A DNA stretch of 64,000 nucleotides. Source: Escherichia coli. GTDB lineage: Bacteria; Pseudomonadota; Gammaproteobacteria; Enterobacterales; Enterobacteriaceae. Under the pieces are notes generated by a model. It was not told the DNA's origin and did not search any database. It saw nothing but the letters and a program-made list of their open reading frames with translations. Shown here in pieces: positions 21,876-64,000 of the stretch; positions within the stretch are counted from its first letter, which is position 1, and each line of letters opens with the position of its first letter. The stretch lies in NCBI RefSeq assembly GCF_030013595.1, contig NZ_CP122768.1; one strand, written 5' to 3'. Both the position numbers and the translations under genes were made by a program.

Positions 21876-22335
21876 AAAAATAATCCTTCGCCTTGCGCAA
21901 ACCAGGTACTGGTATTGTTATTAACGAGAAACGTGGCTGATTATTGCATTTAAACGGTGTAACTGTCTGCGTCATTTTTCATATCACATTCCTTAAACCA
22001 ATTTTAATCCTGCTCAAATGACCGTCTATGCTTAAAAAACAGCCGTATCAGCATCAATACTACTGAAGCAACTGAATTGTATAAGTTAATTTAAGGTTAA
22101 GTAGTGATTCGTACTGGGGCGATGTCTCGTTTTACCTGACCGTCGAAGACAATTATCAGTCTTTATCCGGCGTTCTAAGGTGTTTATCCCACTATCACGG
22201 CTGAATCGTTAATATTTTGCGAGTTCACGCCGAAATACTGATTTTTGGCGCTAGATCACAGGCATAATTTTCAGTACGTTATAGGGCGTTTGTTACTAAT
22301 TTATTTTAACGGAGTAACATTTAGCTCGTACATGA

Positions 22336-23931
<1,596 letters not shown>

Positions 23932-23938
23932 GGGGTAA

Positions 23939-25330
<1,392 letters not shown>

Positions 25331-40811: not shown

Positions 40812-40876
40812 GACTCCACTGTCAGACGGATGGACGGACTTGAAGTAGTTGACTCAACGCTACTTAAGGTCCTGAT

Positions 40877-42485: not shown

Positions 42486-42562
42486 GTAGGAAGACCCAAG
42501 GTGGAGACCATATACGGCTTGATGGTTGAGACCTTGGGTCACTGAAGTCTGACTGAAGTTAG

Positions 42563-42603
42563 GGAGGGTGATAATAATCATAATCCCTCCTGACTATAGG
42601 CCC
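42563..42603 (+). promoter_or_regulatory. hairpin (GGAGGG-16 nt-CCCTCC) followed by T7-class promoter-like motif CTGACTATAGGCCC
   Basis: Direct reading of sequence; TATAGG core shared with motifs at 42801-43474. Confidence 0.35.
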
Positions 42604-42644
42604 ACTGGTTCGCCTTCGGCTGTCCGACTCTAAGTCTGTCTGTG

Positions 42645-42776
42645 GTCTTATTTAAACTGGTTCCCTAACTCAGGTCCTCCAACTTGGTGTCTTATTTAAA
42701 CTGGTTCCCTAACTCAGGTCCTCCAACTTGGTGTCTTATTTAAACTGGTTCCCTAACTCAGGCCCCTCCAAATTTC
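42645..42776 (+). repeat. three tandem copies of a 44-bp repeat (GTCTTATTTAAACTGGTTCCCTAACTCAGGTCCTCCAACTTGGT)
   Basis: Units start at 42645, 42689 and 42733; first two identical, third diverges in its last 14 nt. Confidence 0.85.
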
Positions 42777-42800
42777 GTTGTCTGTCAGCGACTTAAATAT

Positions 42801-42855
42801 CCCCTCACCTTAGAAGAGTTTAGGGTTCAGACCCTTAACTATCACCTTAGGAGAG
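42801..42855 (+). promoter_or_regulatory. pair of single-subunit phage RNAP promoter-like motifs (CCCCTCACCTTAGAAGAG and AACTATCACCTTAGGAGAG)
   Basis: Resemble SP6/T3-class promoters (…CACTATAGAAGAG / …CCCTCACTAAAGGGAGA); located just upstream of the 166-aa ORF. Confidence 0.35.
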
Positions 42856-42901
42856 ACGGGCCGTCCTCCACCCAATCAAAACCTTAAGAGGAGGACCATA
42901 C

Positions 42902-43402
42902 ATGGCTATTAAAATTCAGTGCTACACCGAGTCCGACAATGCGGCTTTCTTCGGTGACGATTCCGACCTCCAGCACCAGCTACCAGCACCGACATATGAC
43001 GAACCTAAGGCCCGCACAGGTAAGCCTCCTGTGGTCATCGACAACCGGGCTGTCCGTGCGTGGCTGATTGAGACTGGGTGTCTCTCCTATACGCAGCTTG
43101 TTGAGGCGTACCCGTGGGCTGACGATGTGTTCACAGGACTCTCACGGGCTACCAGTGGCGCTGTCGGTGCTGGACTCCCGGTATCTAAGGCGTACCTGTT
43201 CTCTGCCTTATATGGCACCAACGACATCTTCTCCCGTAACACAGCCAAATCCTACGCTGACATCACTGGGCGTTCACCGTCTCCTCGCTACCTGCGCCAC
43301 GTCAATAGCGTGCTTCAGGCTACGGCTGTGAATCTGGCTAAGGTTCTGAAGGACCGAGGGGATTTCACATGGTGGGATTACAACGATCAGTGCCTGTCCT
43401 GA
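42902..43402 (+). CDS. hypothetical protein (166 aa)
   Basis: ORF with GAGGAGG Shine-Dalgarno 8 nt upstream; no recognisable motifs. Confidence 0.55.
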   Translation: MAIKIQCYTESDNAAFFGDDSDLQHQLPAPTYDEPKARTGKPPVVIDNRAVRAWLIETGCLSYTQLVEAYPWADDVFTGLSRATSGAVGAGLPVSKAYLFSALYGTNDIFSRNTAKSYADITGRSPSPRYLRHVNSVLQATAVNLAKVLKDRGDFTWWDYNDQCLS

Positions 43403-43426
43403 GAGCCGCGCCAGCTCTGGGCTGGA

Positions 43427-43474
43427 ATACCCCCTCACTATAGGGACACCCCCTAAACTATCACTATAGGGGGG
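43427..43474 (+). promoter_or_regulatory. pair of T3/T7-class promoter-like motifs (CCCCCTCACTATAGGGACA and AACTATCACTATAGGGGGGA)
   Basis: First motif matches the T3 promoter core CCCTCACTAAAGGGA at 14 of 15 positions and the T7 core TCACTATAGGGA exactly; no RNAP gene in the element. Confidence 0.45.
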
Positions 43475-43620
43475 ACCAACCTTGCCTCTGCTTCTGATGC
43501 GTCAGAACACGCGAGGTCCTCCCGACATTAAGTATTCTCCTAAGTAATCAAGGCCCGTGACCGCCTCTGACAGACCTCCTGTATCGACCTCCAGCTCGTT
43601 AGCGTTCTTTAGTCGTCTCG

Positions 43621-43628
43621 GTTAGTAG
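43621..43628 (+). repeat. 8-bp target-site duplication GTTAGTAG (left) of IS66-family copy 1
   Basis: Identical octamer at 46329-46336 immediately outside the IS ends. Confidence 0.8.
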
Positions 43629-43712
43629 GTAACCGGCTCATTTAAACCGTCTGGTCTGTTTCCTCCGGCTCTACAAAAATAATGTCCATCATTTTTTAAT
43701 GGACACTATCGT

Positions 43713-44360
43713 ATGAAACACCGGACCTGGATCACTGAAGCTTTACGTCTTCACTTTGAAGAACATTTACCCCGGGTTGTGGCCGGGCGTCGCCTGGGTG
43801 TACCAAAATCAACAGTTTGTAGTATGTTCGTGCGCTTTCGGAGAGCTGGCCTTTCGTGGCCTTTGCCCGCAGGCATGTCGGAGCAGGAACTTGATGCCTG
43901 CCTTTACGGACAATTTTCCACGGTACCAGTCGTACGTCCTGAAAGCACCGTTATATCCGAAGCCCCCGTGGTAAAAAAACGTCCCCGGCGGCCCAACTTC
44001 CCTTATGAGTTTAAAATCGCCTTAGTGGAGCAGTCACTGCAGCCCGGAGCCTGTGTGGCGCAGATCGCCCGGGAAAACGGAATCAACGATAACCTGCTCT
44101 TCAACTGGCGCCATCAATACCGGAAAGGTGGCCTGCTGCCTTCCGGAAAAAATATGCCGGCACTGCTTCCCGTGACGTTAACGCCGGAGCCGGATAATAA
44201 AATCCCGGCCCCCGCACAGGAACCAGAGCAGATAAATACACCGTCCGACAGTCTGTGTTGTGAGCTGGTTCTGCCGGCCGGAACTCTCAGGCTTAAAGGT
44301 AAACTGACGCCGGCGTTATTACAGACACTTATCCGCGAAATAAAAGGGAGCAGCCACTGA
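43713..44360 (+). CDS. IS66-family accessory protein (orf1, HTH)
   Basis: 215 aa first ORF of the IS. Confidence 0.8.
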   Translation: MKHRTWITEALRLHFEEHLPRVVAGRRLGVPKSTVCSMFVRFRRAGLSWPLPAGMSEQELDACLYGQFSTVPVVRPESTVISEAPVVKKRPRRPNFPYEFKIALVEQSLQPGACVAQIARENGINDNLLFNWRHQYRKGGLLPSGKNMPALLPVTLTPEPDNKIPAPAQEPEQINTPSDSLCCELVLPAGTLRLKGKLTPALLQTLIREIKGSSH

Positions 44361-44707
44361 TGATATCTCTCCCTGCAGGTTCGCGTATCTGGCTGGTTGC
44401 AGGTATCACCGATATGCGAAATGGCTTTAACGGCCTGGCATCAAAAGTTCAGAACGTCCTGAAGGATGACCCGTTCTCCGGACACCTGTTCATCTTCCGC
44501 GGACGCCGGGGTGACCAGATAAAAGTGTTGTGGGCTGACAGTGACGGACTGTGCCTCTTCACCAAACGCCTGGAGCGGGGCCGCTTCGTCTGGCCAGTCA
44601 CCCGTGACGGCAAGGTGCACCTTACTCCGGCTCAGTTATCCATGCTTCTTGAAGGTATCAACTGGAAGCACCCGAAACGAACGGAACGCGCTGGAATCCG
44701 CATATAA
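44360..44707 (+). CDS. IS66-family Orf2 (TnpB-like)
   Basis: 115 aa MISLPAGSRIWLVAGITDMRNGFNGLA..., typical IS66 orf2; start overlaps orf1 stop. Confidence 0.85.
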   Translation: MISLPAGSRIWLVAGITDMRNGFNGLASKVQNVLKDDPFSGHLFIFRGRRGDQIKVLWADSDGLCLFTKRLERGRFVWPVTRDGKVHLTPAQLSMLLEGINWKHPKRTERAGIRI

Positions 44708-44726
44708 CCCGTTGTAAAGTGAGGAT

Positions 44727-46298
44727 ATGGACACCTCACTTGCTCATGAGAACGCCCGCCTGCGGGCACTGTTGCAGACGCAACAGGACACCATCCGCCA
44801 GATGGCTGAATACAACCGCCTGCTCTCACAGCGGGTGGCGGCTTATGCTTCCGAAATCAACCGGCTGAAGGCGCTGGTTGCGAAACTGCAACGTATGCAG
44901 TTCGGTAAAAGCTCAGAAAAACTTCGTGCAAAAACCGAACGGCAGATACAGGAAGCACAGGAGCGAATCAGCGCACTTCAGGAAGAAATGGCGGAAACGC
45001 TGGGTGAGCAATATGACCCGGTACTGCCATCCGCCCTGCGCCAGTCTTCAGCCCGTAAACCGTTACCGGCCTCACTTCCCCGTGAAACCCGGGTTATCCG
45101 GCCGGAAGAGGAATGCTGTCCTGCCTGTGGTGGTGAACTCAGTTCTCTGGGATGTGATGTGTCAGAGCAACTGGAGCTTATCAGCAGCGCCTTTAAGGTT
45201 ATCGAAACACAACGTCCGAAACAGGCCTGTTGCCGGTGCGACCATATCGTACAGGCACCAGTACCTTCAAAACCCATTGCACGCAGTTATGCCGGAGCGG
45301 GGCTTCTGGCCCATGTTGTCACCGGGAAATATGCAGACCATCTGCCGTTATACCGCCAGTCAGAAATATACCGTCGTCAGGGAGTGGAGCTGAGCCGTGC
45401 CACACTGGGGCGCTGGACAGGTGCTGTTGCTGAACTGCTGGAGCCGCTGTATGACGTCCTGCGCCAGTATGTGCTGATGCCCGGTAAAGTCCATGCTGAT
45501 GATATCCCCGTCCCGGTCCAGGAGCCGGGCAGCGGTAAAACCCGGACAGCCCGGCTGTGGGTCTACGTCCGTGATGACCGTAACGCCGGTTCACAGATGC
45601 CCCCGGCGGTCTGGTTCGCGTACAGTCCGGACCGGAAAGGTATCCATCCACAAAATCACCTGGCCGGTTACAGCGGTGTGCTTCAGGCCGATGCTTACGG
45701 TGGTTACCGGGCGTTATACGAATCCGGCAGAATAACGGAAGCCGCGTGTATGGCTCATGCCCGGAGAAAAATCCACGATGTGCATGCAAGAGCGCCCACC
45801 TACATCACCACGGAAGCCCTGCAGCGTATCGGTGAACTGTATGCCATCGAGGCAGAGGTCCGGGGCTGTTCAGCAGAACAGCGTCTGGCGGCAAGAAAAG
45901 CCAGAGCCGCGCCACTGATGCAGTCACTGTATGACTGGATACAGCAACAGATGAAAACACTGTCGCGTCACTCAGATACGGCAAAAGCGTTCGCATACCT
46001 GCTGAAACAGTGGGATGCACTGAACGTGTACTGCAGTAATGGCTGGGTGGAAATCGACAACAACATCGCAGAGAACGCCTTACGGGGAGTGGCCGTAGGC
46101 CGGAAAAACTGGATGTTCGCGGGTTCCGACAGCGGTGGTGAACATGCGGCGGTGTTGTACTCGCTGATCGGCACATGCCGTCTGAACAATGTGGAGCCAG
46201 AAAAGTGGCTGCGTTACGTCATTGAACATATCCAGGACTGGCCGGCAAACCGGGTACGCGATCTGTTGCCCTGGAAAGTTGATCTGAGCTCTCAGTAA
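44727..46298 (+). CDS. IS66-family transposase (orf3)
   Basis: 523 aa with N-terminal leucine-zipper-like region, CxxC...CxxC zinc finger and DDE region. Confidence 0.85.
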
Positions 46299-46328
46299 AT
46301 ATCAATACGGTTCTGACGAGTCGCTTAC

Positions 46329-46336
46329 GTTAGTAG
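46329..46336 (+). repeat. 8-bp target-site duplication GTTAGTAG (right) of IS66-family copy 1
   Basis: Matches 43621-43628. Confidence 0.8.
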
Positions 46337-46582
46337 CTCGTCTACTCACTACATTGGCTTAAGTCTATCACCGCTCACCATCTGGAGTCCTTACAGCTCG
46401 TCCTGACATGCGGTCTCACCTTATATGCACATGGAGAACATGGCCACTCCAGACCAACACTAATCAACATTAACCCTATTCACTTTCGTTAAGCATTTTT
46501 TGGTGGGTCCGTTTGGATGCATTGAATAGGTGCGGACTCCACGTGGAGACAGAAAGTGCTTTACTAAAGGAGCATCCTTTAT

Positions 46583-46972
46583 ATGACTATTAAATCCATC
46601 GTTATCAACGGTAAGACCATCCTGTCTACACCTAACGCCATCAATGAGGGTGTCTGGTTCGACATGCTTGAGGTCCATCAAGCTGCTGGCTTGCCTGCTA
46701 ACAAGACGTTCTCACAGTGGCGCAGCCGACAGTCTCGTGCATTAGAAGAGGCTGGAGAGGTGTCGTTTGACAGTGTACAGAAGACCCTGTGTGGCAGCTT
46801 TGTGGCAGTGCTGGCCTACCTTATGTGGGCGGACCTTACTCTCTGGCTGGCGGTGGTTCGTTACGTTGCGTCTGAGACTATCGGCGTCCTGCCTGACCGC
46901 TTCAAGTCTATCGACGGTGATAACCCCGAGTTAGAAATGTCAGAGGATAACAGCGAGTGGGAGGACTTCTAA
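46583..46972 (+). CDS. KilA-N domain protein (129 aa)
   Basis: N-terminal pattern (INGKTI...NEGVWFDMLEV...GLPANKTFSQW) and hydrophobic WxxxLxxxL segment typical of KilA-N/APSES DNA-binding domains. Confidence 0.5.
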   Translation: MTIKSIVINGKTILSTPNAINEGVWFDMLEVHQAAGLPANKTFSQWRSRQSRALEEAGEVSFDSVQKTLCGSFVAVLAYLMWADLTLWLAVVRYVASETIGVLPDRFKSIDGDNPELEMSEDNSEWEDF

Positions 46973-46973
46973 G

Positions 46974-47714
46974 ATGACCATGAGCCAGCTTGAAGCATTA
47001 CCTATCGTCATCGAGGGTCATTCATTCATCTGCAACGACCAGCGCATGTGGAACCTGAACGAGATTCACCGAGTGTTAGGTCTTCCAGCAAGCAAGATGC
47101 CGTCTGAGTGGAATAACAAGATTCGCACACAACTTGACCGCTCCGGAAATTTCCGGACCGTGAATGGTGACGGCGGTGGTACATGGGCGACCGAGGCTGG
47201 GACCGTGGCTTATGCTATGTGGGTCTCTACAGATTTCTACCTGATGGTCATCAATGCTTTCATCTTTATGCGTAACGACGCAATCGTCCGAGAGCGTGTA
47301 GCGGTCAAACAGGCTGACGAGGCTAACGCTAACCTCTCCATCGCAGCACCTAAGGCAGACATCTTTGACGGTCGTCTGACCAATGGTGGCTCTGTTCCGT
47401 GGAACTGGGCGTGTAAATCTTTGGGTCTTGCCCCGATGAAACTGAAAGAGGGCTTGAAGCGCTCCGGTAAGTTCGTCCAGAAGTGGAACCCTGACAGTTA
47501 CGCCGACGAGCTTCGACCTCAGGAGAAGGCGTTCAGTATTGGACTATTCGTCACTAAGTCAGTCATGGGTAAAGACACATGGCAGGTGACAGCTAAAGGC
47601 TACGCATGGATGCAGGGGAACGCCCAGAAGTGGAGAGAGCTAATAGCTGATGGTGACCGCTTAAAGGCTGCTGAGCGTCGAGCACAGAAGCGTCTTAACC
47701 GTGGAGGTAAGTAG
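46974..47714 (+). CDS. KilA-N domain protein with C-terminal extension (246 aa)
   Basis: Paralogous to upstream ORF (IEGHSFICNDQRMWNLNEIHRVLGLPASKMPSEW... GTWATEAGTVAYAMWVSTDFYLMV). Confidence 0.5.
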   Translation: MTMSQLEALPIVIEGHSFICNDQRMWNLNEIHRVLGLPASKMPSEWNNKIRTQLDRSGNFRTVNGDGGGTWATEAGTVAYAMWVSTDFYLMVINAFIFMRNDAIVRERVAVKQADEANANLSIAAPKADIFDGRLTNGGSVPWNWACKSLGLAPMKLKEGLKRSGKFVQKWNPDSYADELRPQEKAFSIGLFVTKSVMGKDTWQVTAKGYAWMQGNAQKWRELIADGDRLKAAERRAQKRLNRGGK

Positions 47715-47716
47715 TC

Positions 47717-47941
47717 ATGGCTATGATTGACCCTCGTACACCTATCGGCAAAGCGACCCTTCGTTACCGTGGTCTGCCTACACGTCATCTGCTGTCCCTG
47801 CTGAGACTTGGAGTCGAAGACCCCGAACGCCCGTACTACAGTCGAGACGAGCTAATAGCTATGTTGGTGGACCGTGATTTAGACAATCAGTTACGCCGAG
47901 CCTTTGCGAAGTCTAGCGCAGCTAGGGAACTGGAGTCCTGA
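47717..47941 (+). CDS. hypothetical protein (74 aa)
   Basis: ORF tightly coupled to upstream gene (3-nt gap). Confidence 0.4.
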   Translation: MAMIDPRTPIGKATLRYRGLPTRHLLSLLRLGVEDPERPYYSRDELIAMLVDRDLDNQLRRAFAKSSAARELES

Positions 47942-48146
47942 ACCTTATGGGGCAGAAAAACCGCCGCATAAACCTATCGTCTGCTGACCGAAGTTTCGAC
48001 GCATTGAGCCAGACGGAAAAGTTTTCCTGCTGGTAAACCACCTTAATTTAAACACCTTTTGAGAATGACCGATGCGGGGAGACCCGTAGGCATAACTGTG
48101 TCTGCGATACCGATAGTTCTCACCTTCTCAATAGGAGTACTACCTT

Positions 48147-48638
48147 ATGTTATTCAACAACAACGACTGGAAACTATCAGTCACCGACATCAATCCCTAT
48201 GAAAATACTGTGAGTCTGGACGGTCAGTCCTATCCGCTGTCTCTGGCGATTAAGACCCTGATTCCGGGCTACCTGTCAGGCTTACCGTCCACCAGCCGCG
48301 AGGCGATGGAGTTACTGGAAGCTCTGGCTGAAGCTGGCGTGTCCATTGGCAACTTCTTCAGTAATGACCTGATGACCGCCTATGGTCGCCGCCAGCAGAA
48401 CAAGCGAGCCGAAGCTGAGCGTATTGCTAAAGAGCAGCGCATTCAGGCTGAGCGTATGCGTGAAGAGAACATGACTGATGCAGAGTGGCAGAAAGAGCTA
48501 CAGCGCCGTGAACAGGTCAAAGCTGAACGCCGGACCTATGGTGAGCACCTCCGCAGTGCTACCCATTCCGCTGGGCGCTCCCGTGCTTCTATGGTCGCTG
48601 ACATTGAGTCCACGGACAACTGGATGGACAGCCTCTAA
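48147..48638 (+). CDS. hypothetical coiled-coil protein (163 aa)
   Basis: C-terminal half highly charged and heptad-like (RRQQNKRAEAERIAKEQRIQAERMREENMTDAEWQKELQRREQVKAERR). Confidence 0.5.
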   Translation: MLFNNNDWKLSVTDINPYENTVSLDGQSYPLSLAIKTLIPGYLSGLPSTSREAMELLEALAEAGVSIGNFFSNDLMTAYGRRQQNKRAEAERIAKEQRIQAERMREENMTDAEWQKELQRREQVKAERRTYGEHLRSATHSAGRSRASMVADIESTDNWMDSL

Positions 48639-48704
48639 GACACAGACACACAAGTGGTCCTGACCTGATGTCGGGACCCACAGTATCCAAACTAATTTAG
48701 GAGA

Positions 48705-49700
48705 TTGATTATTATGACGATTAAAGACGCTTTCCAGTTCGGCATTGAGCCAGTACGTATCAGCGACACCGACAACATTCAGATTAACGAAGGTTTGCCA
48801 ACTAACGCAGACCCGCAGGTCTATGCCCTCCAGTTAGCTAAGACGGTTAAGGCTATGCTGAACGGTGTACTTAAAGACGCTCAAGAGAACATCCCGTTCC
48901 CTGTAGAAGTCCTGCCGACCCGCAATAGCCTGCCTACTCCAATCATTGCTCACACTCTGGCTGATCGCTCTGTGGTCGTTCCTGTCCGTGGTGGTAAGCG
49001 ACCTGAAGTCGTGACCGTTCCGTCTGGACAAGAAATCGTGGTCGAACCAATCGAGCAGGCTATTCTCATCTCTGAGCAGACCAAGCTCTGGGACGCCAAG
49101 TCATCCACCGGATTCACTCAGGGCACACTTCAGCAGGACGCTATGAACATCTGTGAGAATGTGGTCCGTACCATCAACGCTCGCATGGTCGACGTTCTGG
49201 AGTCCTCCAAACTGTTGAAGACCGTAGAGCTGCCAGTCCTGACTGGAAGCCTGACCACTAAGGCAGACGCTATCATGGACGCTCTGTTTGAGAACACCGA
49301 GTCCTCTTTCGGCTCTGAAGTGTCTGATTACGGCATCATCGCCCATGAGTCCCAACTGAAAGCGCTGTCCCGTCTGGCAGCTAAACAGGGCTTCTCTGGT
49401 GGAGACGCTATCGTGGATATGCTGGGTACCGACATCGCCTATTACAACGGTGAAGACAAGGGTGTATTCATGCTGGCTAAACGCTTCACGGCCCTGAGCT
49501 TCGGCTGCTTCCGTCACGACGGTGAGAATATTACGGTCGTCCTTTCACGTGATGGCGACTCTCAGTCCCACGACTTGGAAATCCTCGGTAAAGTGTTCGT
49601 TGTCGCTGAAGCTGCTACGACCATCAAGATGGGCACTGGCTCAGCTACTGCCGTCCTGCCTGTAGTCAAACGCCTGAAGTTCACCAAGACCGAAGCGTAA
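48705..49700 (+). CDS. hypothetical protein (331 aa), possible structural/morphogenetic protein
   Basis: Largest non-integrase ORF of the element; follows the coiled-coil ORF; AGGAG Shine-Dalgarno upstream; no motif I can assign. Confidence 0.5.
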   Translation: MIIMTIKDAFQFGIEPVRISDTDNIQINEGLPTNADPQVYALQLAKTVKAMLNGVLKDAQENIPFPVEVLPTRNSLPTPIIAHTLADRSVVVPVRGGKRPEVVTVPSGQEIVVEPIEQAILISEQTKLWDAKSSTGFTQGTLQQDAMNICENVVRTINARMVDVLESSKLLKTVELPVLTGSLTTKADAIMDALFENTESSFGSEVSDYGIIAHESQLKALSRLAAKQGFSGGDAIVDMLGTDIAYYNGEDKGVFMLAKRFTALSFGCFRHDGENITVVLSRDGDSQSHDLEILGKVFVVAEAATTIKMGTGSATAVLPVVKRLKFTKTEA

Positions 49701-49844
49701 GACCAATGGGTAAGAGGTAAGTCTGGACTGAATATCAGCAGGACTTCAGGTGGTGGCCTGTCACTGTGATTAACTAACTACGGTCTGGACCAATGGTCTG
49801 GGCCTTATTACTGGTATGGTAGTATACAGGCGAAGGAGGACCCA

Positions 49845-50000
49845 ATGTCTATGACTTCCGCAGACCTAAGGTCCCTCCTGACTCTGGTCTATAAACTCGT
49901 GTTCCTCTCTGTGGGTCTCTACATGGTTCTCTCTGGTCGACTCGGTGTGGATGTGTTCGACACTCTGTCTAAGGCTGTGGGTGGACTTCTAGGTCCTTAG
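49845..50000 (+). CDS. small single-pass membrane protein (51 aa)
   Basis: ATG with AGGAGGA Shine-Dalgarno; MSMTSADLRSLLTLVYKLVFLSVGLYMVLSGRLGVDVFDTLSKAVGGLLGP; below ORF-track cutoff. Confidence 0.4.
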   Translation: MSMTSADLRSLLTLVYKLVFLSVGLYMVLSGRLGVDVFDTLSKAVGGLLGP

Positions 50001-50153
50001 GTTTGGACTCACAGTGGGACCGATGATTTCTGACAGAAAAATGTGAATGACCATCTAATACATTAAGCCAGCAGACTTCCCCCCATAGTCCCGCCTCAAG
50101 TCCAGACCGAGGCCACCGGGGGTCCTGACCAGCCGTCTAGACATCCCGTCTAA

Positions 50154-50186
50154 TGACACAAGTCTGGCACAAAGCCTGACACAAAG
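50154..50186 (+). repeat. three 11-bp-spaced direct repeats TGACACAAG / TGGCACAAAG / TGACACAAAG (putative arm-type sites, right arm)
   Basis: Same motif and orientation as 40968-40987 at the opposite end of the element. Confidence 0.5.
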
Positions 50187-50241
50187 TCCTTGACTCAATG
50201 CAGGACCTCAGGCCTACTAAGGGTCCGCTTCAAGTCCTTGA

Positions 50242-50252
50242 AGTTCCAGATG
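50242..50252 (+). repeat. right copy of 11-bp direct repeat AGTTCCAGATG
   Basis: Identical to 40801-40811. Confidence 0.8.
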
Positions 50253-51652
50253 AACTTAATGGGCACATCCAGTTTATCTTTGCCGCGGACGCCGTCGCGG
50301 ATTGCCGTCATTTGCGGGCCATGATCGATAGCATCCGTCCAGCTGAAGCAGGAGATTGACGTTTTGACCGGATTATCCAGCACCGGTAGGCGTTCTATGG
50401 TAATGGTATAGGTCGATTCACGCGCGCCACTATTCCCGCCGCTGATGCCGACATTGCCCGTCAAAATAGGCAACATAGCAATAGCGCGTGCGGTCAGCTC
50501 ACCGTTTGCCTGGCGTTGCGGCCCCCAGCCCTGGCAGATATAAGCGGGTTTTGCTGTGCCAATTTCACGCGCCAGTTTGATGATACGGTCCACCGGGATA
50601 CCGGTAATTTGCGAAGCCCACTGCGGCGTTTTCGCTGTTTTATCGTCACCTTCACCAAGAATATAGGCTTTATAGTGACCATTTTTTGGTGCATCTGCGG
50701 GTAAGGTTTTTTCGTCATAGCCGACGCAGTATTTATCAAGAAAAGGTTGATCAACGAGATTTTCGTTAATCAATACCCAGGCAATACCCGCAACCAGCGC
50801 GGCATCGGTGCCCGGGCGAATAGGAAGCCATTCGTCTTCACGACCGGCAGCCGTATCGGTATATCGCGGATCGATAACAATCATTTTTGCGTTCGATTTC
50901 TCGCGCGCTTTTTCAAGAAGATAAGTGATGCCACCACCGCTCATGCGGGTTTCTGCCGGGTTGTTACCAAACATCACGACCAGCTTGCTGTTTTCAATAT
51001 CCGTGGTGCTGTTGCCATCATTACTGCCGTAGGTGTAGGGCATGGCACAGGAAATTTGCGCGGTGCTGTAGGAGCCATACTGGTTGAGTGAGCCGCCGTA
51101 GCAGTTCATCAGGCGTTTGACCGCCGAGGCGGATGGCGAAGAGCGGGTCATATTGCCGCCAACAATCCCCGAAGAGTACTGAATATATACAGCCTCATTG
51201 TCATATTGTTCGACGGTTTTTTTCAGGCTACTGGCGATAGTATCCAGGGCTTCATCCCAGCTAATCCGTTCGAATTTGCCTTCGCCGCGTTTGCCCACGC
51301 GTTTCATTGGGTAATTCAAGCGGTCGGGATGATTAATACGCCGACGGATGGAGCGACCGCGCAAACAGGCGCGTACTTGATGATTGCCATACTCATCGCT
51401 GCCGGTGTTGTCAGTTTCCACCCAGGTCACTTCATTATCTTTAACATGCAGACGAAGTGCACAGCGGCTACCACAGTTGACGGAACAGGCACCCCAGACC
51501 ACTTTCTCGCTGGCCTGTTGTACTGCTGCCGCTGCACTGCGCAGGGTGAACGGTAAAGAAAAACCGCCTGCAGCCAGCGCCAGAGAACCTATCGCGGTAG
51601 ATTTAACGAGTGTTCTGCGGCTGATGCCCACCATTTGTTCATTTTTGGACAT
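50242..51652 (-). pseudogene. ynfE: ynfE 5' fragment (Tat signal and N-terminal about 465 codons)
   Basis: MSKNEQMVGISRRTLVKSTAIGSLALAAGG twin-arginine leader; homology to YnfF ends at ...LDVPIKFIWN where the insert begins. Confidence 0.85.
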
Positions 51653-56882: not shown

Positions 56883-56975
56883 ATGACAATAGAAAAACAC
56901 GAAAGAAGCACTAAGGATTTGGTGAAAGCAGCAGTATCGGGATGGCTGGGCACAGCGCTTGAATTTATGGATTTC
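56883..56975 (+). pseudogene. ydfJ: 5' remnant of an MHS-family transporter gene (ydfJ-like) truncated by prophage insertion
   Basis: ATG at 56883 encodes MTIEKHERSTKDLVKAAVSGWLGTALEFMDF (MHS-family G-x-A-L-E-F-x-D-F N-terminal motif), then reads KSHTCQLFDKY-stop. Confidence 0.55.
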
Positions 56976-57012
56976 AAGAGTCATACGTGTCAACTATTTG
57001 ATAAATATTAAA

Positions 57013-57801
57013 TTAATTTTTCATTGCTTCGTTATGGGGCATGGTTGGGGCAAACTCGCTTAACTGTGTATTTAACAAAGCTACCTGTGCATTATTGTTT
57101 TCAGACATCCATTTTCCGTATACCTGAAATACCATTTGCGCATCTGCATGGCCCATCTGGTTTGCTATAAATGCCGGGTTAGCACCAGCTGTCAGCGACC
57201 AGCAGGCATAAGTATGTCTCGACTGATATGATTTTCGATGGCGGAGTCCGGCACGTTTTATCGCTGCGTCCCACATCTGCCTTATTGAGTCAACGGTAAA
57301 ATGGTCACCATAATTTTTTACTCTCGCTGACACTTCAGGTTGAAAAACAAAGGTGCATTTATGTTTTTCTGTTCTGCCATACTCTCTGAGGTGAACATCA
57401 ATGATATGCTCTTTGCTCAGTCTCGTTAATGTCATCTGACTCCGGAGAGCGTCGATTGCTGGCTTAATAAGATGAATGACCCGATTGGTTCCCGCCTGTG
57501 TTTTTGGTACCGTGAAACGGTCTTTTGCTAAATTTCTCCTGATCATCATTGTTCCATTTTTCAGATCTATGTCCTCCCATCCAAGTGCACACAGCTCACC
57601 AGGGCGAACGCCAGTATAAACAGAAACACACCATAAATTTTTGGCTTGCTGATTTCTGCACGCATCGATAAGACGGATGAATTCCTCCCGCGAAAGAGGA
57701 TCCGGAATGGTTCTTGATTCCTTTAATGGCGAGATCCCCTTAAACGGGTTATCTGCCAGGTAACCGTTATCAACACCAAACTGGAACACGGCGTTAAGAT
57801 T
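57013..57801 (-). pseudogene. lambdoid prophage tyrosine integrase, 3' (catalytic) fragment, separated from 5' part by IS66 copy 2
   Basis: Contains integrase motifs (RPGELCALGWEDID, HIIDVHLREYGRTEK, SRHTYACWSLTAG, HADAQMVFQVYGKW); reading continues in frame from 60502-61016 across the 8-bp TSD. Confidence 0.8.
57794..57801 (+). repeat. 8-bp target-site duplication TTAAGATT of IS66-family copy 2
   Basis: Identical octamer at 60502-60509 outside the other IS end. Confidence 0.8.
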
Positions 57802-57831
57802 GTAAGCGACTCGTCAGAACCGTATTGATAT

Positions 57832-59403
57832 TTACTGAGAGCTCAGATCAACTTTCCAGGGCAACAGATCGCGTACCCGGTTTGCCGGCCAGTCCTGGAT
57901 ATGTTCAATGACGTAACGCAGCCACTTTTCTGGCTCCACATTGTTCAGACGGCATGTGCCGATCAGCGAGTACAACACCGCCGCATGTTCACCACCGCTG
58001 TCGGAACCCGCGAACATCCAGTTTTTCCGGCCTACGGCCACTCCCCGTAAGGCGTTCTCTGCGATGTTGTTGTCGATTTCCACCCAGCCATTACTGCAGT
58101 ACACGTTCAGTGCATCCCACTGTTTCAGCAGGTATGCGAACGCTTTTGCCGTATCTGAGTGACGCGACAGTGTTTTCATCTGTTGCTGTATCCAGTCATA
58201 CAGTGACTGCATCAGTGGCGCGGCTCTGGCTTTTCTTGCCGCCAGACGCTGTTCTGCTGAACAGCCCCGGACCTCTGCCTCGATGGCATACAGTTCACCG
58301 ATACGCTGCAGGGCTTCCGTGGTGATGTAGGTGGGCGCTCTTGCATGCACATCGTGGATTTTTCTCCGGGCATGAGCCATACACGCGGCTTCCGTTATTC
58401 TGCCGGATTCGTATAACGCCCGGTAACCACCGTAAGCATCGGCCTGAAGCACACCGCTGTAACCGGCCAGGTGATTTTGTGGATGGATACCTTTCCGGTC
58501 CGGACTGTACGCGAACCAGACCGCCGGGGGCATCTGTGAACCGGCGTTACGGTCATCACGGACGTAGACCCACAGCCGGGCTGTCCGGGTTTTACCGCTG
58601 CCCGGCTCCTGGACCGGGACGGGGATATCATCAGCATGGACTTTACCGGGCATCAGCACATACTGGCGCAGGACGTCATACAGCGGCTCCAGCAGTTCAG
58701 CAACAGCACCTGTCCAGCGCCCCAGTGTGGCACGGCTCAGCTCCACTCCCTGACGACGGTATATTTCTGACTGGCGGTATAACGGCAGATGGTCTGCATA
58801 TTTCCCGGTGACAACATGGGCCAGAAGCCCCGCTCCGGCATAACTGCGTGCAATGGGTTTTGAAGGTACTGGTGCCTGTACGATATGGTCGCACCGGCAA
58901 CAGGCCTGTTTCGGACGTTGTGTTTCGATAACCTTAAAGGCGCTGCTGATAAGCTCCAGTTGCTCTGACACATCACATCCCAGAGAACTGAGTTCACCAC
59001 CACAGGCAGGACAGCATTCCTCTTCCGGCCGGATAACCCGGGTTTCACGGGGAAGTGAGGCCGGTAACGGTTTACGGGCTGAAGACTGGCGCAGGGCGGA
59101 TGGCAGTACCGGGTCATATTGCTCACCCAGCGTTTCCGCCATTTCTTCCTGAAGTGCGCTGATTCGCTCCTGTGCTTCCTGTATCTGCCGTTCGGTTTTT
59201 GCACGAAGTTTTTCTGAGCTTTTACCGAACTGCATACGTTGCAGTTTCGCAACCAGCGCCTTCAGCCGGTTGATTTCGGAAGCATAAGCCGCCACCCGCT
59301 GTGAGAGCAGGCGGTTGTATTCAGCCATCTGGCGGATGGTGTCCTGTTGCGTCTGCAACAGTGCCCGCAGGCGGGCGTTCTCATGAGCAAGTGAGGTGTC
59401 CAT
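57832..59403 (-). CDS. IS66-family transposase (orf3)
   Basis: 523 aa product identical to 44727-46298. Confidence 0.85.
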
Positions 59404-59422
59404 ATCCTCACTTTACAACGGG

Positions 59423-59770
59423 TTATATGCGGATTCCAGCGCGTTCCGTTCGTTTCGGGTGCTTCCAGTTGATACCTTCAAGAAGCATGGATAACTGAGC
59501 CGGAGTAAGGTGCACCTTGCCGTCACGGGTGACTGGCCAGACGAAGCGGCCCCGCTCCAGGCGTTTGGTGAAGAGGCACAGTCCGTCACTGTCAGCCCAC
59601 AACACTTTTATCTGGTCACCCCGGCGTCCGCGGAAGATGAACAGGTGTCCGGAGAACGGGTCATCCTTCAGGACGTTCTGAACTTTTGATGCCAGGCCGT
59701 TAAAGCCATTTCGCATATCGGTGATACCTGCAACCAGCCAGATACGCGAACCTGCAGGGAGAGATATCAT
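59423..59770 (-). CDS. IS66-family Orf2 (TnpB-like)
   Basis: 115 aa identical to copy 1. Confidence 0.85.
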   Translation of the reverse strand: MISLPAGSRIWLVAGITDMRNGFNGLASKVQNVLKDDPFSGHLFIFRGRRGDQIKVLWADSDGLCLFTKRLERGRFVWPVTRDGKVHLTPAQLSMLLEGINWKHPKRTERAGIRI

Positions 59771-60417
59771 CAGTGGCTGCTCCCTTTTATTTCGCGGATA
59801 AGTGTCTGTAATAACGCCGGCGTCAGTTTACCTTTAAGCCTGAGAGTTCCGGCCGGCAGAACCAGCTCACAACACAGACTGTCGGACGGTGTATTTATCT
59901 GCTCTGGTTCCTGTGCGGGGGCCGGGATTTTATTATCCGGCTCCGGCGTTAACGTCACGGGAAGCAGTGCCGGCATATTTTTTCCGGAAGGCAGCAGGCC
60001 ACCTTTCCGGTATTGATGGCGCCAGTTGAAGAGCAGGTTATCGTTGATTCCGTTTTCCCGGGCGATCTGCGCCACACAGGCTCCGGGCTGCAGTGACTGC
60101 TCCACTAAGGCGATTTTAAACTCATAAGGGAAGTTGGGCCGCCGGGGACGTTTTTTTACCACGGGGGCTTCGGATATAACGGTGCTTTCAGGACGTACGA
60201 CTGGTACCGTGGAAAATTGTCCGTAAAGGCAGGCATCAAGTTCCTGCTCCGACATGCCTGCGGGCAAAGGCCACGAAAGGCCAGCTCTCCGAAAGCGCAC
60301 GAACATACTACAAACTGTTGATTTTGGTACACCCAGGCGACGCCCGGCCACAACCCGGGGTAAATGTTCTTCAAAGTGAAGACGTAAAGCTTCAGTGATC
60401 CAGGTCCGGTGTTTCAT
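59770..60417 (-). CDS. IS66-family accessory protein (orf1)
   Basis: 215 aa identical to copy 1. Confidence 0.8.
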   Translation of the reverse strand: MKHRTWITEALRLHFEEHLPRVVAGRRLGVPKSTVCSMFVRFRRAGLSWPLPAGMSEQELDACLYGQFSTVPVVRPESTVISEAPVVKKRPRRPNFPYEFKIALVEQSLQPGACVAQIARENGINDNLLFNWRHQYRKGGLLPSGKNMPALLPVTLTPEPDNKIPAPAQEPEQINTPSDSLCCELVLPAGTLRLKGKLTPALLQTLIREIKGSSH

Positions 60418-60501
60418 ACGATAGTGTCCATTAAAAAATGATGGACATTATTTTTGTAGAGCCGGAGGAAACAGACCAGACGGTTTAAATGAGCCGGTTA
60501 C

Positions 60502-61016
60502 TTAAGATTTGTCATGTAATTATTTACAGTTACAGCCGATCTACCTGGTTGTGTAACAATATAGTTACTTTTGGGGCTCTGGTATCCAGTCAGTAGCTCT
60601 TTACGAACCTCCAGTAATTTTTCTTTATTAATCGATGAGGCAAGATTTTTTTCACCGATTATGCTCAGGATATTTTTGATGACGGCACGGTATGTGTTGA
60701 GTGATGTTTTTGCGACTTCAGTTTCTTTCAGTGCCAGAAATTTTTCAGCCAGTTCTTTTATGGTTAAATCTTGTCGGGTCTCACCAAATTTTTCCAGATT
60801 GCGTGAGGAGGGAAACTGTTTTGCATAGTCGAAAACACCAGTTTTTATTGCGTAACAAACAGAGGCGCGTAGCTCACCTGCAACGCGCCTGTTTTTTGCT
60901 GTGTCAGGAACCCCCAGGTTTTCCCTGACTCTTACGCCTTTATAAACAAACCAGATACGTAATTTCCCTCCATGGTTTTCCACGCCTGTCGGATATTTCA
61001 TTTCAACTTCTCTCAT
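60502..61016 (-). pseudogene. lambdoid prophage integrase, 5' fragment (N-terminal arm-binding domain)
   Basis: MKYPTGVENHGGKLRIWFVYKGVRVRENLGVPDTAKNRRVAGELRASV, typical phage integrase N-terminus; ORF terminates at a stop supplied by the IS end. Confidence 0.8.
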
Positions 61017-61035
61017 TAGTTAGTGTGGCTTTTAG

Positions 61036-61287
61036 TCAAGTAAGATGACGTCTTGGTCTTGCTGATGCCTGGCGCTCAATCCAGCGATCAATTTCTTCCA
61101 GGTTGTAAAAGCATGGACTGTTATCCCATGGCATACCGTCATGAGCGACATGCTTATATTCCCTTCCTTCCATAAACGATTTTTCCCGGGCCTTTTTTAA
61201 CGTACCTTTTTTTATTCCTTTCAGCGCAATTAACTGCTCTTCGGATACCCATTTGCCGGGAGAGACAATCATGATTACTTCGCTCAT
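61036..61287 (-). CDS. putative excisionase-like protein
   Basis: 83 aa basic ORF immediately upstream of int in the standard lambdoid int-xis arrangement; assignment by position and size, no motif identified. Confidence 0.45.
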   Translation of the reverse strand: MSEVIMIVSPGKWVSEEQLIALKGIKKGTLKKAREKSFMEGREYKHVAHDGMPWDNSPCFYNLEEIDRWIERQASARPRRHLT

Positions 61288-61359
61288 CGATTTCTTTATC
61301 TCTTACATCAGACGAGCGCCGGTTGCAGAATACCAGTCACAACCGGCGACAGTTGAACA

Positions 61360-63831
61360 TTAAGAATCAGCCTGACTCGGGATCAGTTTTTGCCAGATAA
61401 CTGAAACGTATTTTGCTTGGTAACGGGCGTCATCAAGTGCATTATGGCGCTCACCTTCGAATGGAATAGCCGTTCTGGCATCGAAATCTATGGCTTTCCC
61501 CAGCTCAACGATTGTGCGTACATCGCGATCGTTGTAGTAACGCCACGGGCAGGGGATCCCCTGCCGTTCGTATGAACGGCGCAAAATCGTGTTGTCGAAG
61601 TTGGCTCCATTTCCCCAAACCTGAACAAAAAATTCACCGGAGTTTTCGTCGATAAATTCCCGCAATTGTAACAGTGCATCATCTAACGGGATTTCATCGG
61701 TCATAATGGCAGATTGTGCTTCGCGTGATTGCTTAAGCCACCATTTAATGGTGTCCCGATCAATGACTCCGCCAGCAGTTTCCAGATCGATAGTCTTACT
61801 AAATTCCGGTCCTATATCTCCGGTTTGCGGATCGAAAAATATTGCACCTATTGAGATGATCGGTGCATCAGGATTTTTTCCCATGGTTTCAAGGTCGATC
61901 ATTAGATGGTCACACGTCCTGCTGGTGGATGTGATTTTGTGATGACCGTTCACCTTAATTGAGTGATCTGCCGTCTCGCCAGTTTCATTATCGCTATTGT
62001 GATGCTGATTGCCGCCAGTGTTCTCCTTGTGTGGATGTTCAGCGCCTTCCATTTCCTCCGGATCATCTTCCTGAACTTCAACCTGATACTCTTCATCGAA
62101 TGTTTCTTGGTATGTTGCGTCGCCCATCACCGCGCCACAATCAGGGCAGTTGCCGCCGCCGGTCTGACCGCAGGCGGTGCAGACTTTTTCCACTTCCTGT
62201 TGCGCCACTGGTTCAGGCTGTTTCGTTTCTGGCTCGTTTTGTAACGCATTTGGGCTGTTTTGTTCCGCTTTTTGGTAGTTCCGTTCCGATTCATGCTGGT
62301 TCTGGTTCACAGAATCGCGGGTCTGGATCCCCTTAACCCATTTCGGATCATTCGGGTCACTAATCCCTTCAACAAATTCACCATGTGATGCAGCAAGCAA
62401 CTTATCGGCGTCAGGCTGGCTGATATTGGCTGCCTGCATAATTTTGTTTACTTCGTCAGCGGTAACTTTTATCGGCTCTGGTTGTTCTGAATCTTCAGCG
62501 GTATCTACATTTTGCGGTAAGCCCGTGTATGTGCCATTTTTTCGGGCAAAATATTCTTCTTTTGTGATTTCAGTGGCGCCAGCAGCCAGTGCCTTATCTA
62601 GACCAGAAAGTTTGTTTGCGCGACCGTATTTTTCTCCGTCCTTATCTGCGAAGAGGAAATAGAACGGCCCCTCACGCTCTACAGATGGTTCAGCTTCCGG
62701 CGCGGTTTCATTTTTTGGGATATCAGATACCTCAGTTTCCACTGCATCAGTTTGTGTTTCTGATGACTGGAGAACATCAACAGTGCCCAGGTCTGTTTCT
62801 TCATTCTCAAACACGCCCTTTGTCGTCAGGTATTCGCAGATATATTTGTTCAGTGCTACGGGATCTTTGTGAATGTCGATCGGACGCTCACGGACAAGGC
62901 CAAAAATAGTTTGGCGGTCGTAGCGAAGGGCATCAGGCTGTTTGCGCATTGATGCCGAGATACGCTTCCAGTCTTCGCGGTCGTTGTCGATAACTTCTTT
63001 TTTTGCCCAGCGATGGATGCTGCCGTCAATGTTTCCGGCATCCACATCACCAGGCCAGAGAGCGTAGGCCAGTTCGTCATCCAGTGTTTTCCATGTCTGC
63101 TTGTATTCGCGATGAATGGCAGCAATGACCGGGCTGATTTTTCCTGTTGAATTTTCAGTGTACTGTTGATTGGCTCTGGCGCGGGCGAGATCAACAACAG
63201 ACGTGTATTTTCCGGTTTCCTTGCGTTCACCTTCGCGACGTTTTTTCCAGATGCGCATCTCTGCCTGAATTTCGGGCCATTTAGCACCAGGAATACATTT
63301 ATGCTTAACCCACCCAATGGCGTGCAACTTAAGCTCCGGATACATGGCGTTAACTTCTGGCATTTTCATCAACGCTTCAACGATATGTCCGTCGAATGTT
63401 GCCATGTCTTCCTGCAACAATTCCTGTGCGCTAATAACCATATCAACGGTGATGTTTTCACATGTGTCGAACTTAACCATGACAGCGTTCTGTACTTCAG
63501 GGGCCAGCTTGTCAAAAGTGACGTTCATCGGATCGGATTCAGTCTCAACCGGGACAAAAGAAGCAGACTCCTCATCCCAGCGGTTTTCCTGCATATATTC
63601 AGCATCCCATGAATCGAGGGCAGGGCGGGGTATGCCAGGTTTATCCTCGCAGACAATAAATTTATAAGCGCAGTCCTGAGCAGCCGGATAATGTTCCAGG
63701 AACTGCCAGTGAAATTTTGCTCGAGCACGGCGTTCGTCGCCAGCTTCAATGGCTGTGGCTACAGCCACAGCGCCTTCTTCCCTTGTTGCCAGTTCGTCAG
63801 GAATAGCGGCGCAAATAAAGACTTTACTCAT
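61360..63831 (-). CDS. prophage exonuclease-like protein (823 aa) with C-terminal DnaQ/DEDD-type 3'-5' exonuclease domain
   Basis: C-terminal DLET...NGANFDNTIL...HNALDDARY pattern resembles DEDDh exonuclease motifs; acidic central region with a Cys cluster (CTACGQTGGGNCPDCG). Confidence 0.55.
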   Translation of the reverse strand: MSKVFICAAIPDELATREEGAVAVATAIEAGDERRARAKFHWQFLEHYPAAQDCAYKFIVCEDKPGIPRPALDSWDAEYMQENRWDEESASFVPVETESDPMNVTFDKLAPEVQNAVMVKFDTCENITVDMVISAQELLQEDMATFDGHIVEALMKMPEVNAMYPELKLHAIGWVKHKCIPGAKWPEIQAEMRIWKKRREGERKETGKYTSVVDLARARANQQYTENSTGKISPVIAAIHREYKQTWKTLDDELAYALWPGDVDAGNIDGSIHRWAKKEVIDNDREDWKRISASMRKQPDALRYDRQTIFGLVRERPIDIHKDPVALNKYICEYLTTKGVFENEETDLGTVDVLQSSETQTDAVETEVSDIPKNETAPEAEPSVEREGPFYFLFADKDGEKYGRANKLSGLDKALAAGATEITKEEYFARKNGTYTGLPQNVDTAEDSEQPEPIKVTADEVNKIMQAANISQPDADKLLAASHGEFVEGISDPNDPKWVKGIQTRDSVNQNQHESERNYQKAEQNSPNALQNEPETKQPEPVAQQEVEKVCTACGQTGGGNCPDCGAVMGDATYQETFDEEYQVEVQEDDPEEMEGAEHPHKENTGGNQHHNSDNETGETADHSIKVNGHHKITSTSRTCDHLMIDLETMGKNPDAPIISIGAIFFDPQTGDIGPEFSKTIDLETAGGVIDRDTIKWWLKQSREAQSAIMTDEIPLDDALLQLREFIDENSGEFFVQVWGNGANFDNTILRRSYERQGIPCPWRYYNDRDVRTIVELGKAIDFDARTAIPFEGERHNALDDARYQAKYVSVIWQKLIPSQADS

Positions 63832-64000
63832 TTTGTTTTAACCTCATGACAGATTTAAGGATGAACAAATCCCTGCCATTGCTGGCATATAAGAATGAAA
63901 CCGGATATTTATTACGGAACTGTTTTAAAGACCTGCCGGGATTTCGATATTATCCTGGTGAATAACTTTATCGACCGGGTAACAGTTACCGGGAATTTTC

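Follow-up and report, generated by a model that had tools for sequence, protein, structure and literature searches.

ISCro1 splits the integrase gene of a Qin-type prophage at ydfJ in Escherichia coli

Introduction

Inactivation of the integrase gene of a Qin-like prophage by an insertion sequence (IS) is ordinary, textbook prophage decay. The closest described system is Qin of Escherichia coli K-12 with its ydfJ'/ynfP - intQ - ydfE end, where a remnant of IS2 (IS2E) took out the 5' end of int, xis and the 3' part of ydfE. Related integrases with the three-domain architecture of lambda Int are encoded by uninterrupted genes in isolated phages, namely mEp460_ev081 and its relatives HannyBb, PhiR42_1 and Tritos. 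Prophages with an inactivated integration/excision module were described as "grounded" (domesticated) (review PMC6379469). The element ISCro1 was originally reported from Citrobacter rodentium ICC168, in which no other IS has expanded as much (PMC3072379).

Here, we analyzed a stretch of 64,000 nucleotides of E. coli DNA, called the window throughout, which carries the integrase end of a prophage at ydfJ. This prophage shares with K-12 Qin the chromosomal site, the core sequence, the orientation beside rspB, an int gene with 98.9% DNA identity to intQ, the gene exo corresponding to ydfE, and an int apparently inactivated by an IS in both cases. In contrast to K-12 Qin, no deletion was found in the window, a complete ISCro1 lies in codon 172 of int, and neither xis nor exo is damaged. 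The integrase restored in silico showed 99.3% protein identity to Int of mEp460_ev081 and 98.8% to those of its relatives over the full 431 amino acids, and it has the same three-domain architecture, whereas the gene in the window is split and presumably dead. Comparing the locus with grounded prophages, no difference in kind was observed: a lesion in int would immobilize the prophage, and the neighboring genes are intact. Unusual is only how often the same IS strikes the same module across strains.

Results and Discussion

First, the bacterial side of the junction was compared with uninterrupted ydfJ homologues, which are annotated as "MHS family MFS transporter YdfJ". The ATG of ydfJ was found at position 56883 on the plus strand, and the match to the homologues stops at 56975-56978, after codon 31. 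Based on the end of this similarity, the K-12-like junction and the list of open reading frames (ORFs), a 5' remnant of 31 codons was placed at 56883-56975. Its K-12 counterpart is ynfP. The ORF of the remnant extends across the junction into the phage sequence, ends with a stop at 57011 and encodes 42 amino acids in total. The 11-bp att core TTATGGATTTC, common to both ends of K-12 Qin, is located at 56965-56975 and marks the bacterial/prophage junction at the rspB-proximal end. The stop codon of the integrase gene lies 38 bp from the core, at 57013. Comparing the junction and the adjoining integrase with the rspB-side end of K-12 Qin, an identity of 98.9% was observed. The site belongs to the Qin type by its location at this core within the 5' part of ydfJ and by the position of int beside the rspB-side junction. 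The initial annotation of this DNA had proposed a ydfJ gene truncated after about 31 codons and a lambdoid integrase directly beside it, as at the K-12 Qin site; the end of the ydfJ similarity and the junction position and core common to K-12 bear out both proposals. The prophage was followed from the ydfJ junction through int, xis and exo up to position 64000, with its other end and the remainder beyond the window, where a Qin-type prophage would have a second att site with the 3' part of ydfJ and genes such as dicB, relBE and the csp genes. Related strains are a poor proxy for that part, as content and rearrangements vary by strain.

Within the integrase gene, an element of 2,700 bp was found at 57802-60501 on the minus strand, defined by its inverted repeats, its Pfam families and 99.9% identity to RefSeq-annotated ISCro1. 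It possesses the three genes of the IS66 family, all on the minus strand and co-directional with int, xis and exo: tnpA (59770-60417; HTH_Tnp_1), tnpB (59423-59770; TnpB_IS66, E=4.7e-40) and tnpC (57832-59403; DDE_Tnp_IS66, E=2.5e-103). TnpC additionally contains zf-IS66, LZ_Tnp_IS66 and the IS66 C-terminal element. The ends are likewise those of an IS66 element. The terminal inverted repeats of 22 nt (57802-57823 and 60480-60501) are imperfect with 73% complementarity, and the element is flanked on both sides by a perfect 8-bp target-site duplication TTAAGATT (57794-57801 and 60502-60509). The name ISCro1 rests on the RefSeq annotation, in which copies with 99.9% identity are termed "IS66-like element ISCro1 family" by NCBI. 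The order tnpA-tnpB-tnpC, the DDE_Tnp_IS66 transposase, the 8-bp duplication and imperfect inverted repeats starting with GTAAGCG/GTAACCG are all likenesses to ISCro1. An IS66 element with an 8-bp duplication had been suspected to split the integrase, in agreement with the three protein families and the repeats found.

The insertion point lies within codon 172 of the minus-strand int gene. The 5' fragment (60502-61016, minus strand) encodes residues 1-171, to which the IS end adds a Lys and a stop codon (60498-60500), and would yield a truncated product of 172 amino acids. The 3' fragment (57013-57801, minus strand) extends from codon 170 to residue 431 and the stop codon, with codons 170-171 and part of codon 172 doubled by the duplication. 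It comprises the last part of the core-binding domain and the entire catalytic domain, as delimited by Pfam Phage_integrase and an alignment to the Tn1549 Int (PDB 6EMY), and it is devoid of a start codon, a promoter and an arm-binding domain. An earlier division into a 5' arm-binding and a 3' catalytic part held for the location of these two domains (Pfam Arm-DNA-bind_2 in the 5' fragment). However, the break is found inside the core-binding domain (residues 85-196) and not between domains, so that the 5' fragment keeps, besides the arm-binding domain (residues 9-72), the larger part of the core-binding domain.

When the IS and one of the repeats were removed in silico, a single integrase ORF of 431 amino acids was restored, as had been expected of a reading frame restorable across the duplication. 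The restored gene aligned unbroken over 1,296 nt with 99.9% identity to intact E. coli integrase genes. The two fragments are collinear once the IS is removed, and no lesion other than the IS was found. The restored protein showed the three domains of a lambda-type tyrosine integrase, with Arm-DNA-bind_2 at residues 9-72 (E=5.7e-24), Phage_integrase at 206-397 (E=3.8e-18) and a SAM-like core-binding domain at 85-196, for which the matches lie slightly under the curated cut-offs. Alignment to the Tn1549 Int gave R235, K269, R364, H387 and Y397 as predicted catalytic residues, all of them in the 3' fragment. In the HxxR box, the first His is replaced by Tyr361.

For the origin of this arrangement, we propose that Int-mediated recombination at the core TTATGGATTTC placed a lambdoid mEp460/Qin-type prophage in the 5' part of ydfJ. 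Later, ISCro1, with its DDE transposase TnpC making 8-bp staggered cuts, would have inserted into codon 172 of int, co-directional with the gene. The insertion would disconnect the catalytic domain from the arm-binding part and the bulk of the core-binding part and strand it with neither start codon nor promoter. In the absence of Int, Xis cannot direct recombination of attL x attR, and the prophage would thus be fixed ("grounded") unless a compatible Int is provided in trans. The anatomy of the locus, including fragment collinearity, identity of the IS and the assignment of domains and residues, was observed directly; loss of Int activity, and hence of self-excision, is what we infer as the best reading of it. 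The prophage is likely excision-deficient.

An almost identical Int encoded by a different prophage could work in trans. Continued excision of the prophage, either by an Int of the same specificity in trans or by rare precise loss of the IS restoring int, appears improbable to us. The duplication allows exact restoration of the frame, and this type of Int is present in active phages and very common in E. coli: the gene was found in 3,050 of 5,426 complete genomes, 2,709 of which carry an unbroken stretch of at least 80% of its length, and some genomes contain up to 3 int-matching places. However, most of these genomes are single-copy (median 1 place per genome), and no second copy of this int was found within the 64-kb window. 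Furthermore, precise excision of DDE-type ISs is rare, which counts against a restored int.

The neighboring genes had been regarded as intact, and this assessment stands. The excisionase gene xis (61036-61287, minus strand) is uninterrupted and encodes 83 amino acids, which match positions 1-69 of the 70 positions of the Pfam profile DUF1233 "putative excisionase" (E=1.6e-31). Its homologues are annotated as excisionase family protein. The early-left prophage gene exo (61360-63831, minus strand) is also uninterrupted. With 823 amino acids it has the length of annotated "exonuclease" genes, and a C-terminal 3'-5' exonuclease domain was found at residues 642-813 (Pfam Rv2179c-like, E=2.5e-67). 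It represents the intact form of the K-12 pseudogene ydfE.

The state of these genes bears on a competing explanation, in which the IS arrived late, as a neutral insertion in an already cryptic prophage, and is not the cause of the excision deficiency. We consider this a serious possibility with somewhat less than even odds. Versions of the prophage in KY1497 and other strains carry multiple lesions, with an IS1 in the antiterminator gene and an ISNCY remnant, and the far end of the KY1497 prophage abuts sitABCD/uspF/ompN. In HCP5S3_I2, an IS3 element at the start of exo and an ISCro1 in an S49 protease gene were found, though int is intact. K-12 Qin is a 20-kb remnant, and the int-xis region accumulates many different ISs. 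In light of the other lesions in related strains, the IS in the window is perhaps neither the only nor the first cause of immobility. On the other hand, the part of the prophage within the window showed no sign of earlier decay: xis and exo are intact, and the restored int is free of lesions, and its protein shares 99.3% identity with Int of a live phage. For the explanation we prefer, a prophage of the mEp460/Qin type at ydfJ that was grounded when a recent ISCro1 insertion split its int, we estimate a probability of roughly 0.85.

A further ISCro1 was found at 43629-46328 on the plus strand. This copy 1 is inverted relative to the copy in int, 100% identical to it and flanked by its own duplication GTTAGTAG, so the label "copy 2", given from the outset to the element in int, is correct. 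Copy 1 is probably the sibling or the source of copy 2. Recombination of copy 1 with copy 2, by which the intervening 11 kb would be inverted, was ruled out, since each copy has its own matching duplication. Compared to the copy in KY1497, both window copies carry an identical set of changes, two substitutions and an extra A. With the latter, at 60433 in copy 2, both are 2,700 bp long versus 2,699 bp for the ISCro1 copies in RefSeq. As a consequence of the extra A, the upstream ATG used by RefSeq for TnpA is out of frame; the TnpA ORF of 215 amino acids starting with MKHRTW is not affected. The extra A is part of an A-run in both copies, where a systematic sequencing error instead of a lineage marker is possible in principle. 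In all 18 of 18 other genomes compared, the copies are 2,699 bp long or represent an internally deleted form, and the variants common to both window copies are absent. The identity of the two window copies and the three variants unseen in the other copies examined point to a recent insertion which arose in this genome lineage. For this strain, it means that the prophage at ydfJ probably no longer leaves the chromosome, and that ISCro1 was recently active in the lineage.

Two identical IS copies are a setting prone to misjoins, and the exact insertion of the window, searched as a one-piece match to the copy 2 junctions, was found in 0 of 5,426 complete E. coli genomes. The copy 1 junction also gave no one-piece match among these genomes. 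Nevertheless, an assembly artefact with an ISCro1 repeat misplaced into int is very improbable. Each copy carries its own perfect 8-bp duplication of the local target, which a misjoin would not create, and independent complete assemblies show true ISCro1 insertions with 8-bp duplications at 16 further positions of the region. Matches with 100% coverage were considered as clonal relatives and ruled out as such, for they are non-collinear with the IS at other positions. The set of complete genomes was therefore taken to contain neither the source genome nor a clonal relative.

In the 5,426 genomes, int, xis and the 3' end of exo were found to carry a total of 18 further ISCro1 insertions, at 16 positions that all differ from the one in the window. 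All 19 of 19 mapped ISCro1 insertions have perfect 8-bp duplications. One position was used three times, and two positions are only 1 bp apart. Comparing the 1.1 kb of int-xis with the adjacent 2 kb of exo, 16 versus 2 events were counted (P≈4e-6), corresponding to an about 14-fold higher density in int-xis, and both exo events lie at most 500 bp from xis. A single ancestral insertion that "moved" was ruled out by the individual 8-bp duplications and the absence of a footprint at the other sites; the different lineages, the different int alleles (93-99.9% identity) and the distinct IS variant of the window also speak against it.

This clustering points to a regional insertion hot spot. Whether ISCro1 has a strong regional target preference for the module of int, xis and the 3' end of exo, and repeatedly and independently grounds a very common E. 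coli prophage, is in our judgment evenly balanced. The hot spot could arise from a high AT content or bending of the DNA, or from a nucleoprotein structure (binding of H-NS, IHF, Int or Xis); alternatively, selection for loss of int/xis expression, not targeting, could produce it. Searching the literature for ISCro1 or IS66 elements targeting integrases, or for a target preference of the IS66 family, no report was found. The only reported ISCro1 "hot spot", the afa regulatory region of ST131, is unrelated (PMC8764528). The repeated independent insertions of ISCro1 into the int-xis module of about 1.5 kb in unrelated E. coli lineages are of more interest than the single split in the window. They suggest that one IS can serve as a systematic route to prophage domestication, and a natural hot spot with about 17 mapped sites would offer a concrete substrate for testing the target choice of IS66 elements.

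Looking at the individual events, 13 of the 18 database insertions have the orientation seen in the window and 5 the opposite one, which does not support a strict orientation bias (two-sided P=0.10). No obvious target consensus was found among the duplications, which are mildly AT-rich with 66% versus 57% for the region.

The prophage in ydfJ and its split integrase

The window is E. coli chromosome with the gene order ynfA - rspA - rspB - ydfJ' - int - xis - exo, and a lambdoid prophage of the mEp460/Qin type sits in ydfJ. Around the integrase gene int, this order corresponds to the rspB-side end of Qin, the cryptic K-12 prophage at ydfJ, read in reverse orientation. The 5' end of ydfJ forms an ORF starting at 56883, and in comparison with genomes lacking a prophage here, its match to 'MHS family MFS transporter YdfJ' stops at 56975-56978, the end of codon 31. 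Junction comparison located the core TTATGGATTTC, common to both K-12 Qin ends, at 56965-56975. The initial annotation had described a ydfJ-like gene cut after about 31 codons and directly followed by a lambdoid integrase as at K-12 Qin, and both points were confirmed. Past the core, the ORF continues for 11 codons of phage origin and stops at 57011; the K-12 counterpart of this remnant is annotated as ynfP.

The integrase gene was found as two minus-strand ORFs (57013-57789 and 60498-61016) on either side of a 2,700-bp element at 57802-60501, which is bordered on each side by the 8-bp duplication TTAAGATT. In silico removal of the element and one repeat yielded a single int ORF of 431 aa, with Pfam matches to Arm-DNA-bind_2 (residues 9-72), SAM-like core-binding families (85-196) and Phage_integrase (206-397). 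The restored gene is collinear with intact integrase genes in one alignment over 1,296 nt, with up to 99.9% identity. The break lies at codon 172 within the core-binding domain, and the product of the 5' fragment consists of residues 1-171 followed by Lys and a stop from the IS end. Alignment to the Tn1549 Int (6EMY) placed R235, K269, Y361-x-x-R364, H387 and the nucleophile Y397 all in the 3' fragment. The proposed division by the second IS66 copy into a 5' arm-binding and a 3' catalytic part, a frame restorable across the duplication and collinear fragments were thus all observed.

At the protein level, the restored integrase shares 99.3% identity with that of the isolated lambdoid phage mEp460_ev081, 98.8% with its HannyBb, PhiR42_1 and Tritos counterparts, and 62% with those of VT1-Sakai and Stx phages. 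Of the 5,426 complete E. coli genomes searched, 3,050 carry the int gene, and 2,709 have 80% or more of it as a single contiguous stretch.

The inserted element

Copy 2, the element in int, is 99.9% identical to elements named 'IS66-like element ISCro1 family' in RefSeq. It is bounded by imperfect 22-nt terminal inverted repeats, GTAAGCGACTCGTCAGAACCGT and GTAACCGGCTCATTTAAACCGT, and its ORFs match HTH_Tnp_1 (TnpA), TnpB_IS66 and DDE_Tnp_IS66 in Pfam, the last ORF also carrying the IS66 zinc-finger, leucine-zipper and C-terminal modules. ISCro1 transposed into int and generated the 8-bp duplication. Recombination between the two ISCro1 copies of the window was ruled out, since copy 1 (43629-46328; inverted relative to copy 2, 100% identical) has its own duplication, GTTAGTAG.

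Both window copies differ from the copy in strain KY1497 at two substituted bases and by one additional A in the A-run at 60433, which copy 1 carries at the equivalent base (IS position 2632). ISCro1 measures 2,699 bp or is an internally deleted form in all 18 other genomes compared, versus 2,700 bp in the window. These shared variants argue that one window copy probably arose recently from the other within this genome. With the extra A, the upstream ATG used by RefSeq for TnpA is out of frame and meets a stop after 5 codons, whereas the 215-aa ORF that starts at the following ATG (MKHRTW...) is unaffected. Provided the variant is real, it evidently did not prevent transposition, suggesting that the shorter TnpA is the functional form.

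Predicted loss of excision and state of the prophage

Int is most likely non-functional. The arm- and core-binding fragment lacks the catalytic domain, and the catalytic fragment lacks a start codon, promoter and N-terminal domains. Recombination between attL and attR should then be beyond the reach of Xis alone, which would leave the prophage fixed in place. This view, which leans on established knowledge of lambda-type integrases, is open to trans-complementation or prior defects elsewhere in the prophage, and the second att site lies outside the window. Both the observation and the interpretation of the initial annotation stand, including the intactness of the neighbouring genes: xis (61036-61287, 83 aa) is uninterrupted and covers the full DUF1233 profile, and exo (61360-63831), encoding 823 aa with a C-terminal 3'-5' exonuclease domain, is uninterrupted and as long as its annotated homologues. 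K-12 carries another lesion here: the 5' end of int, xis and the 3' portion of ydfE, the exonuclease gene, have given way to an IS2 remnant.

Elsewhere, the prophage varies among related strains. In KY1497 it has the full structural genes, yet an IS1 in the antiterminator gene; its structural-gene end adjoins sitABCD-uspF-ompN rather than ydfJ, implying a probable rearrangement with another prophage region. In HCP5S3_I2 the prophage extends past the 50 kb fetched, with int intact, an IS3 element at the start of exo and ISCro1 in the head-protease gene.

Recurrent ISCro1 insertion in the int-xis region

The ISCro1/int junctions of the window occurred in none of the 5,426 complete E. coli genomes; the split int adds a new allele to a very familiar class of lesion. 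The 79 genomes seemingly carrying the whole region lack collinearity with the window. ISCro1 lies between xis and an intact int in KY1497 and in most of about 60 genomes listed. The KY1497 element (21720-24418 of locus L001) sits in the 19-bp xis-int spacer with the duplication GTTAGTGT, and about 50 similar genomes were listed. This large group consists of clinical isolates, several named '405'; both genes are intact, and the element cuts int off from upstream transcription.

Insertions were mapped in representatives fetched from the comparison genomes (L001-L020) and with chimeric int+IS probes in both orientations, and are given in window-equivalent coordinates (region 57300-61900). Besides that of the window (57801), 18 further independent insertions at 16 positions were found in int, xis and the exo 3' end; all 19 show perfect 8-bp duplications, at 17 positions in total. 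The others are at 57345, 57391, 57793 (RS571; its duplication abuts that of the window), 60632, 60675, 60750, 60923, 60924, 60944, 61003, 61026, 61036, 61058 and 61067, and in exo at 61650 and 61842. Three of the events share position 60923; they include both orientations and int alleles that are just 94% identical. A corresponding scan of exo in either orientation (61600-63600) yielded only 61650 and 61842, both less than 500 bp from xis. Without counting the insertion of the window itself, int-xis has 16 events in 1.1 kb and exo 2 in 2 kb, about 14 times the density of the adjacent exo gene (P≈4e-6; P≈3e-5 by distinct positions only), which points to a regional hot spot for ISCro1 insertion.

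The 13:5 orientation bias of the 18 events toward that of the window was not significant, and the duplications showed no target consensus beyond mild AT-richness (66% vs 57%). Within the region, AT content peaks in the 5' half of int (39-40% GC vs 45-52% in exo). Other elements gather in or near this region as well: the IS2 remnant in K-12 intQ (L004 22844-23549), an IS1 in int of YSP8-1, and ISEc8, likewise of the IS66 family and in opposite orientation, in rspB of ML775 (L007 727-3039) and between rspB and int of 06_3044 (L014 1210-3522). The region may therefore be a general IS sink, and the cluster may have arisen from a target that is generally permissive, AT-rich and possibly bound by protein, from a preference of ISCro1, or from selection for silencing int/xis. 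A literature search found no report of such an ISCro1 target preference; the recurrent targeting is a modestly interesting by-product of the analysis.

Further observations

The molybdopterin oxidoreductase gene ynfE is also split, with about 9.2 kb of foreign DNA (~40952-50194) between its C-terminal (39785-40951) and N-terminal (50195-51652) ORFs. The insert holds a 514-aa ORF (40877-42421) whose sole match is phrog_1, a PHROG integrase family, with none in Pfam; it also holds a KilA-N/ANT antirepressor-like ORF (46974-47714), several ORFs without family match and ISCro1 copy 1. For the 150 bp to the left of copy 1, megablast gave no match among the top matches listed from the 5,426 complete genomes. 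The insert resembles an integrative element in ynfE that is both small and rare. ISCro1 adjoins a 'phage tail fiber C-terminal domain-containing protein' gene in many Shiga-toxin-type strains (O103, O26, others); the site may be another recurrent prophage target, or a single insertion may have spread by descent or duplication.
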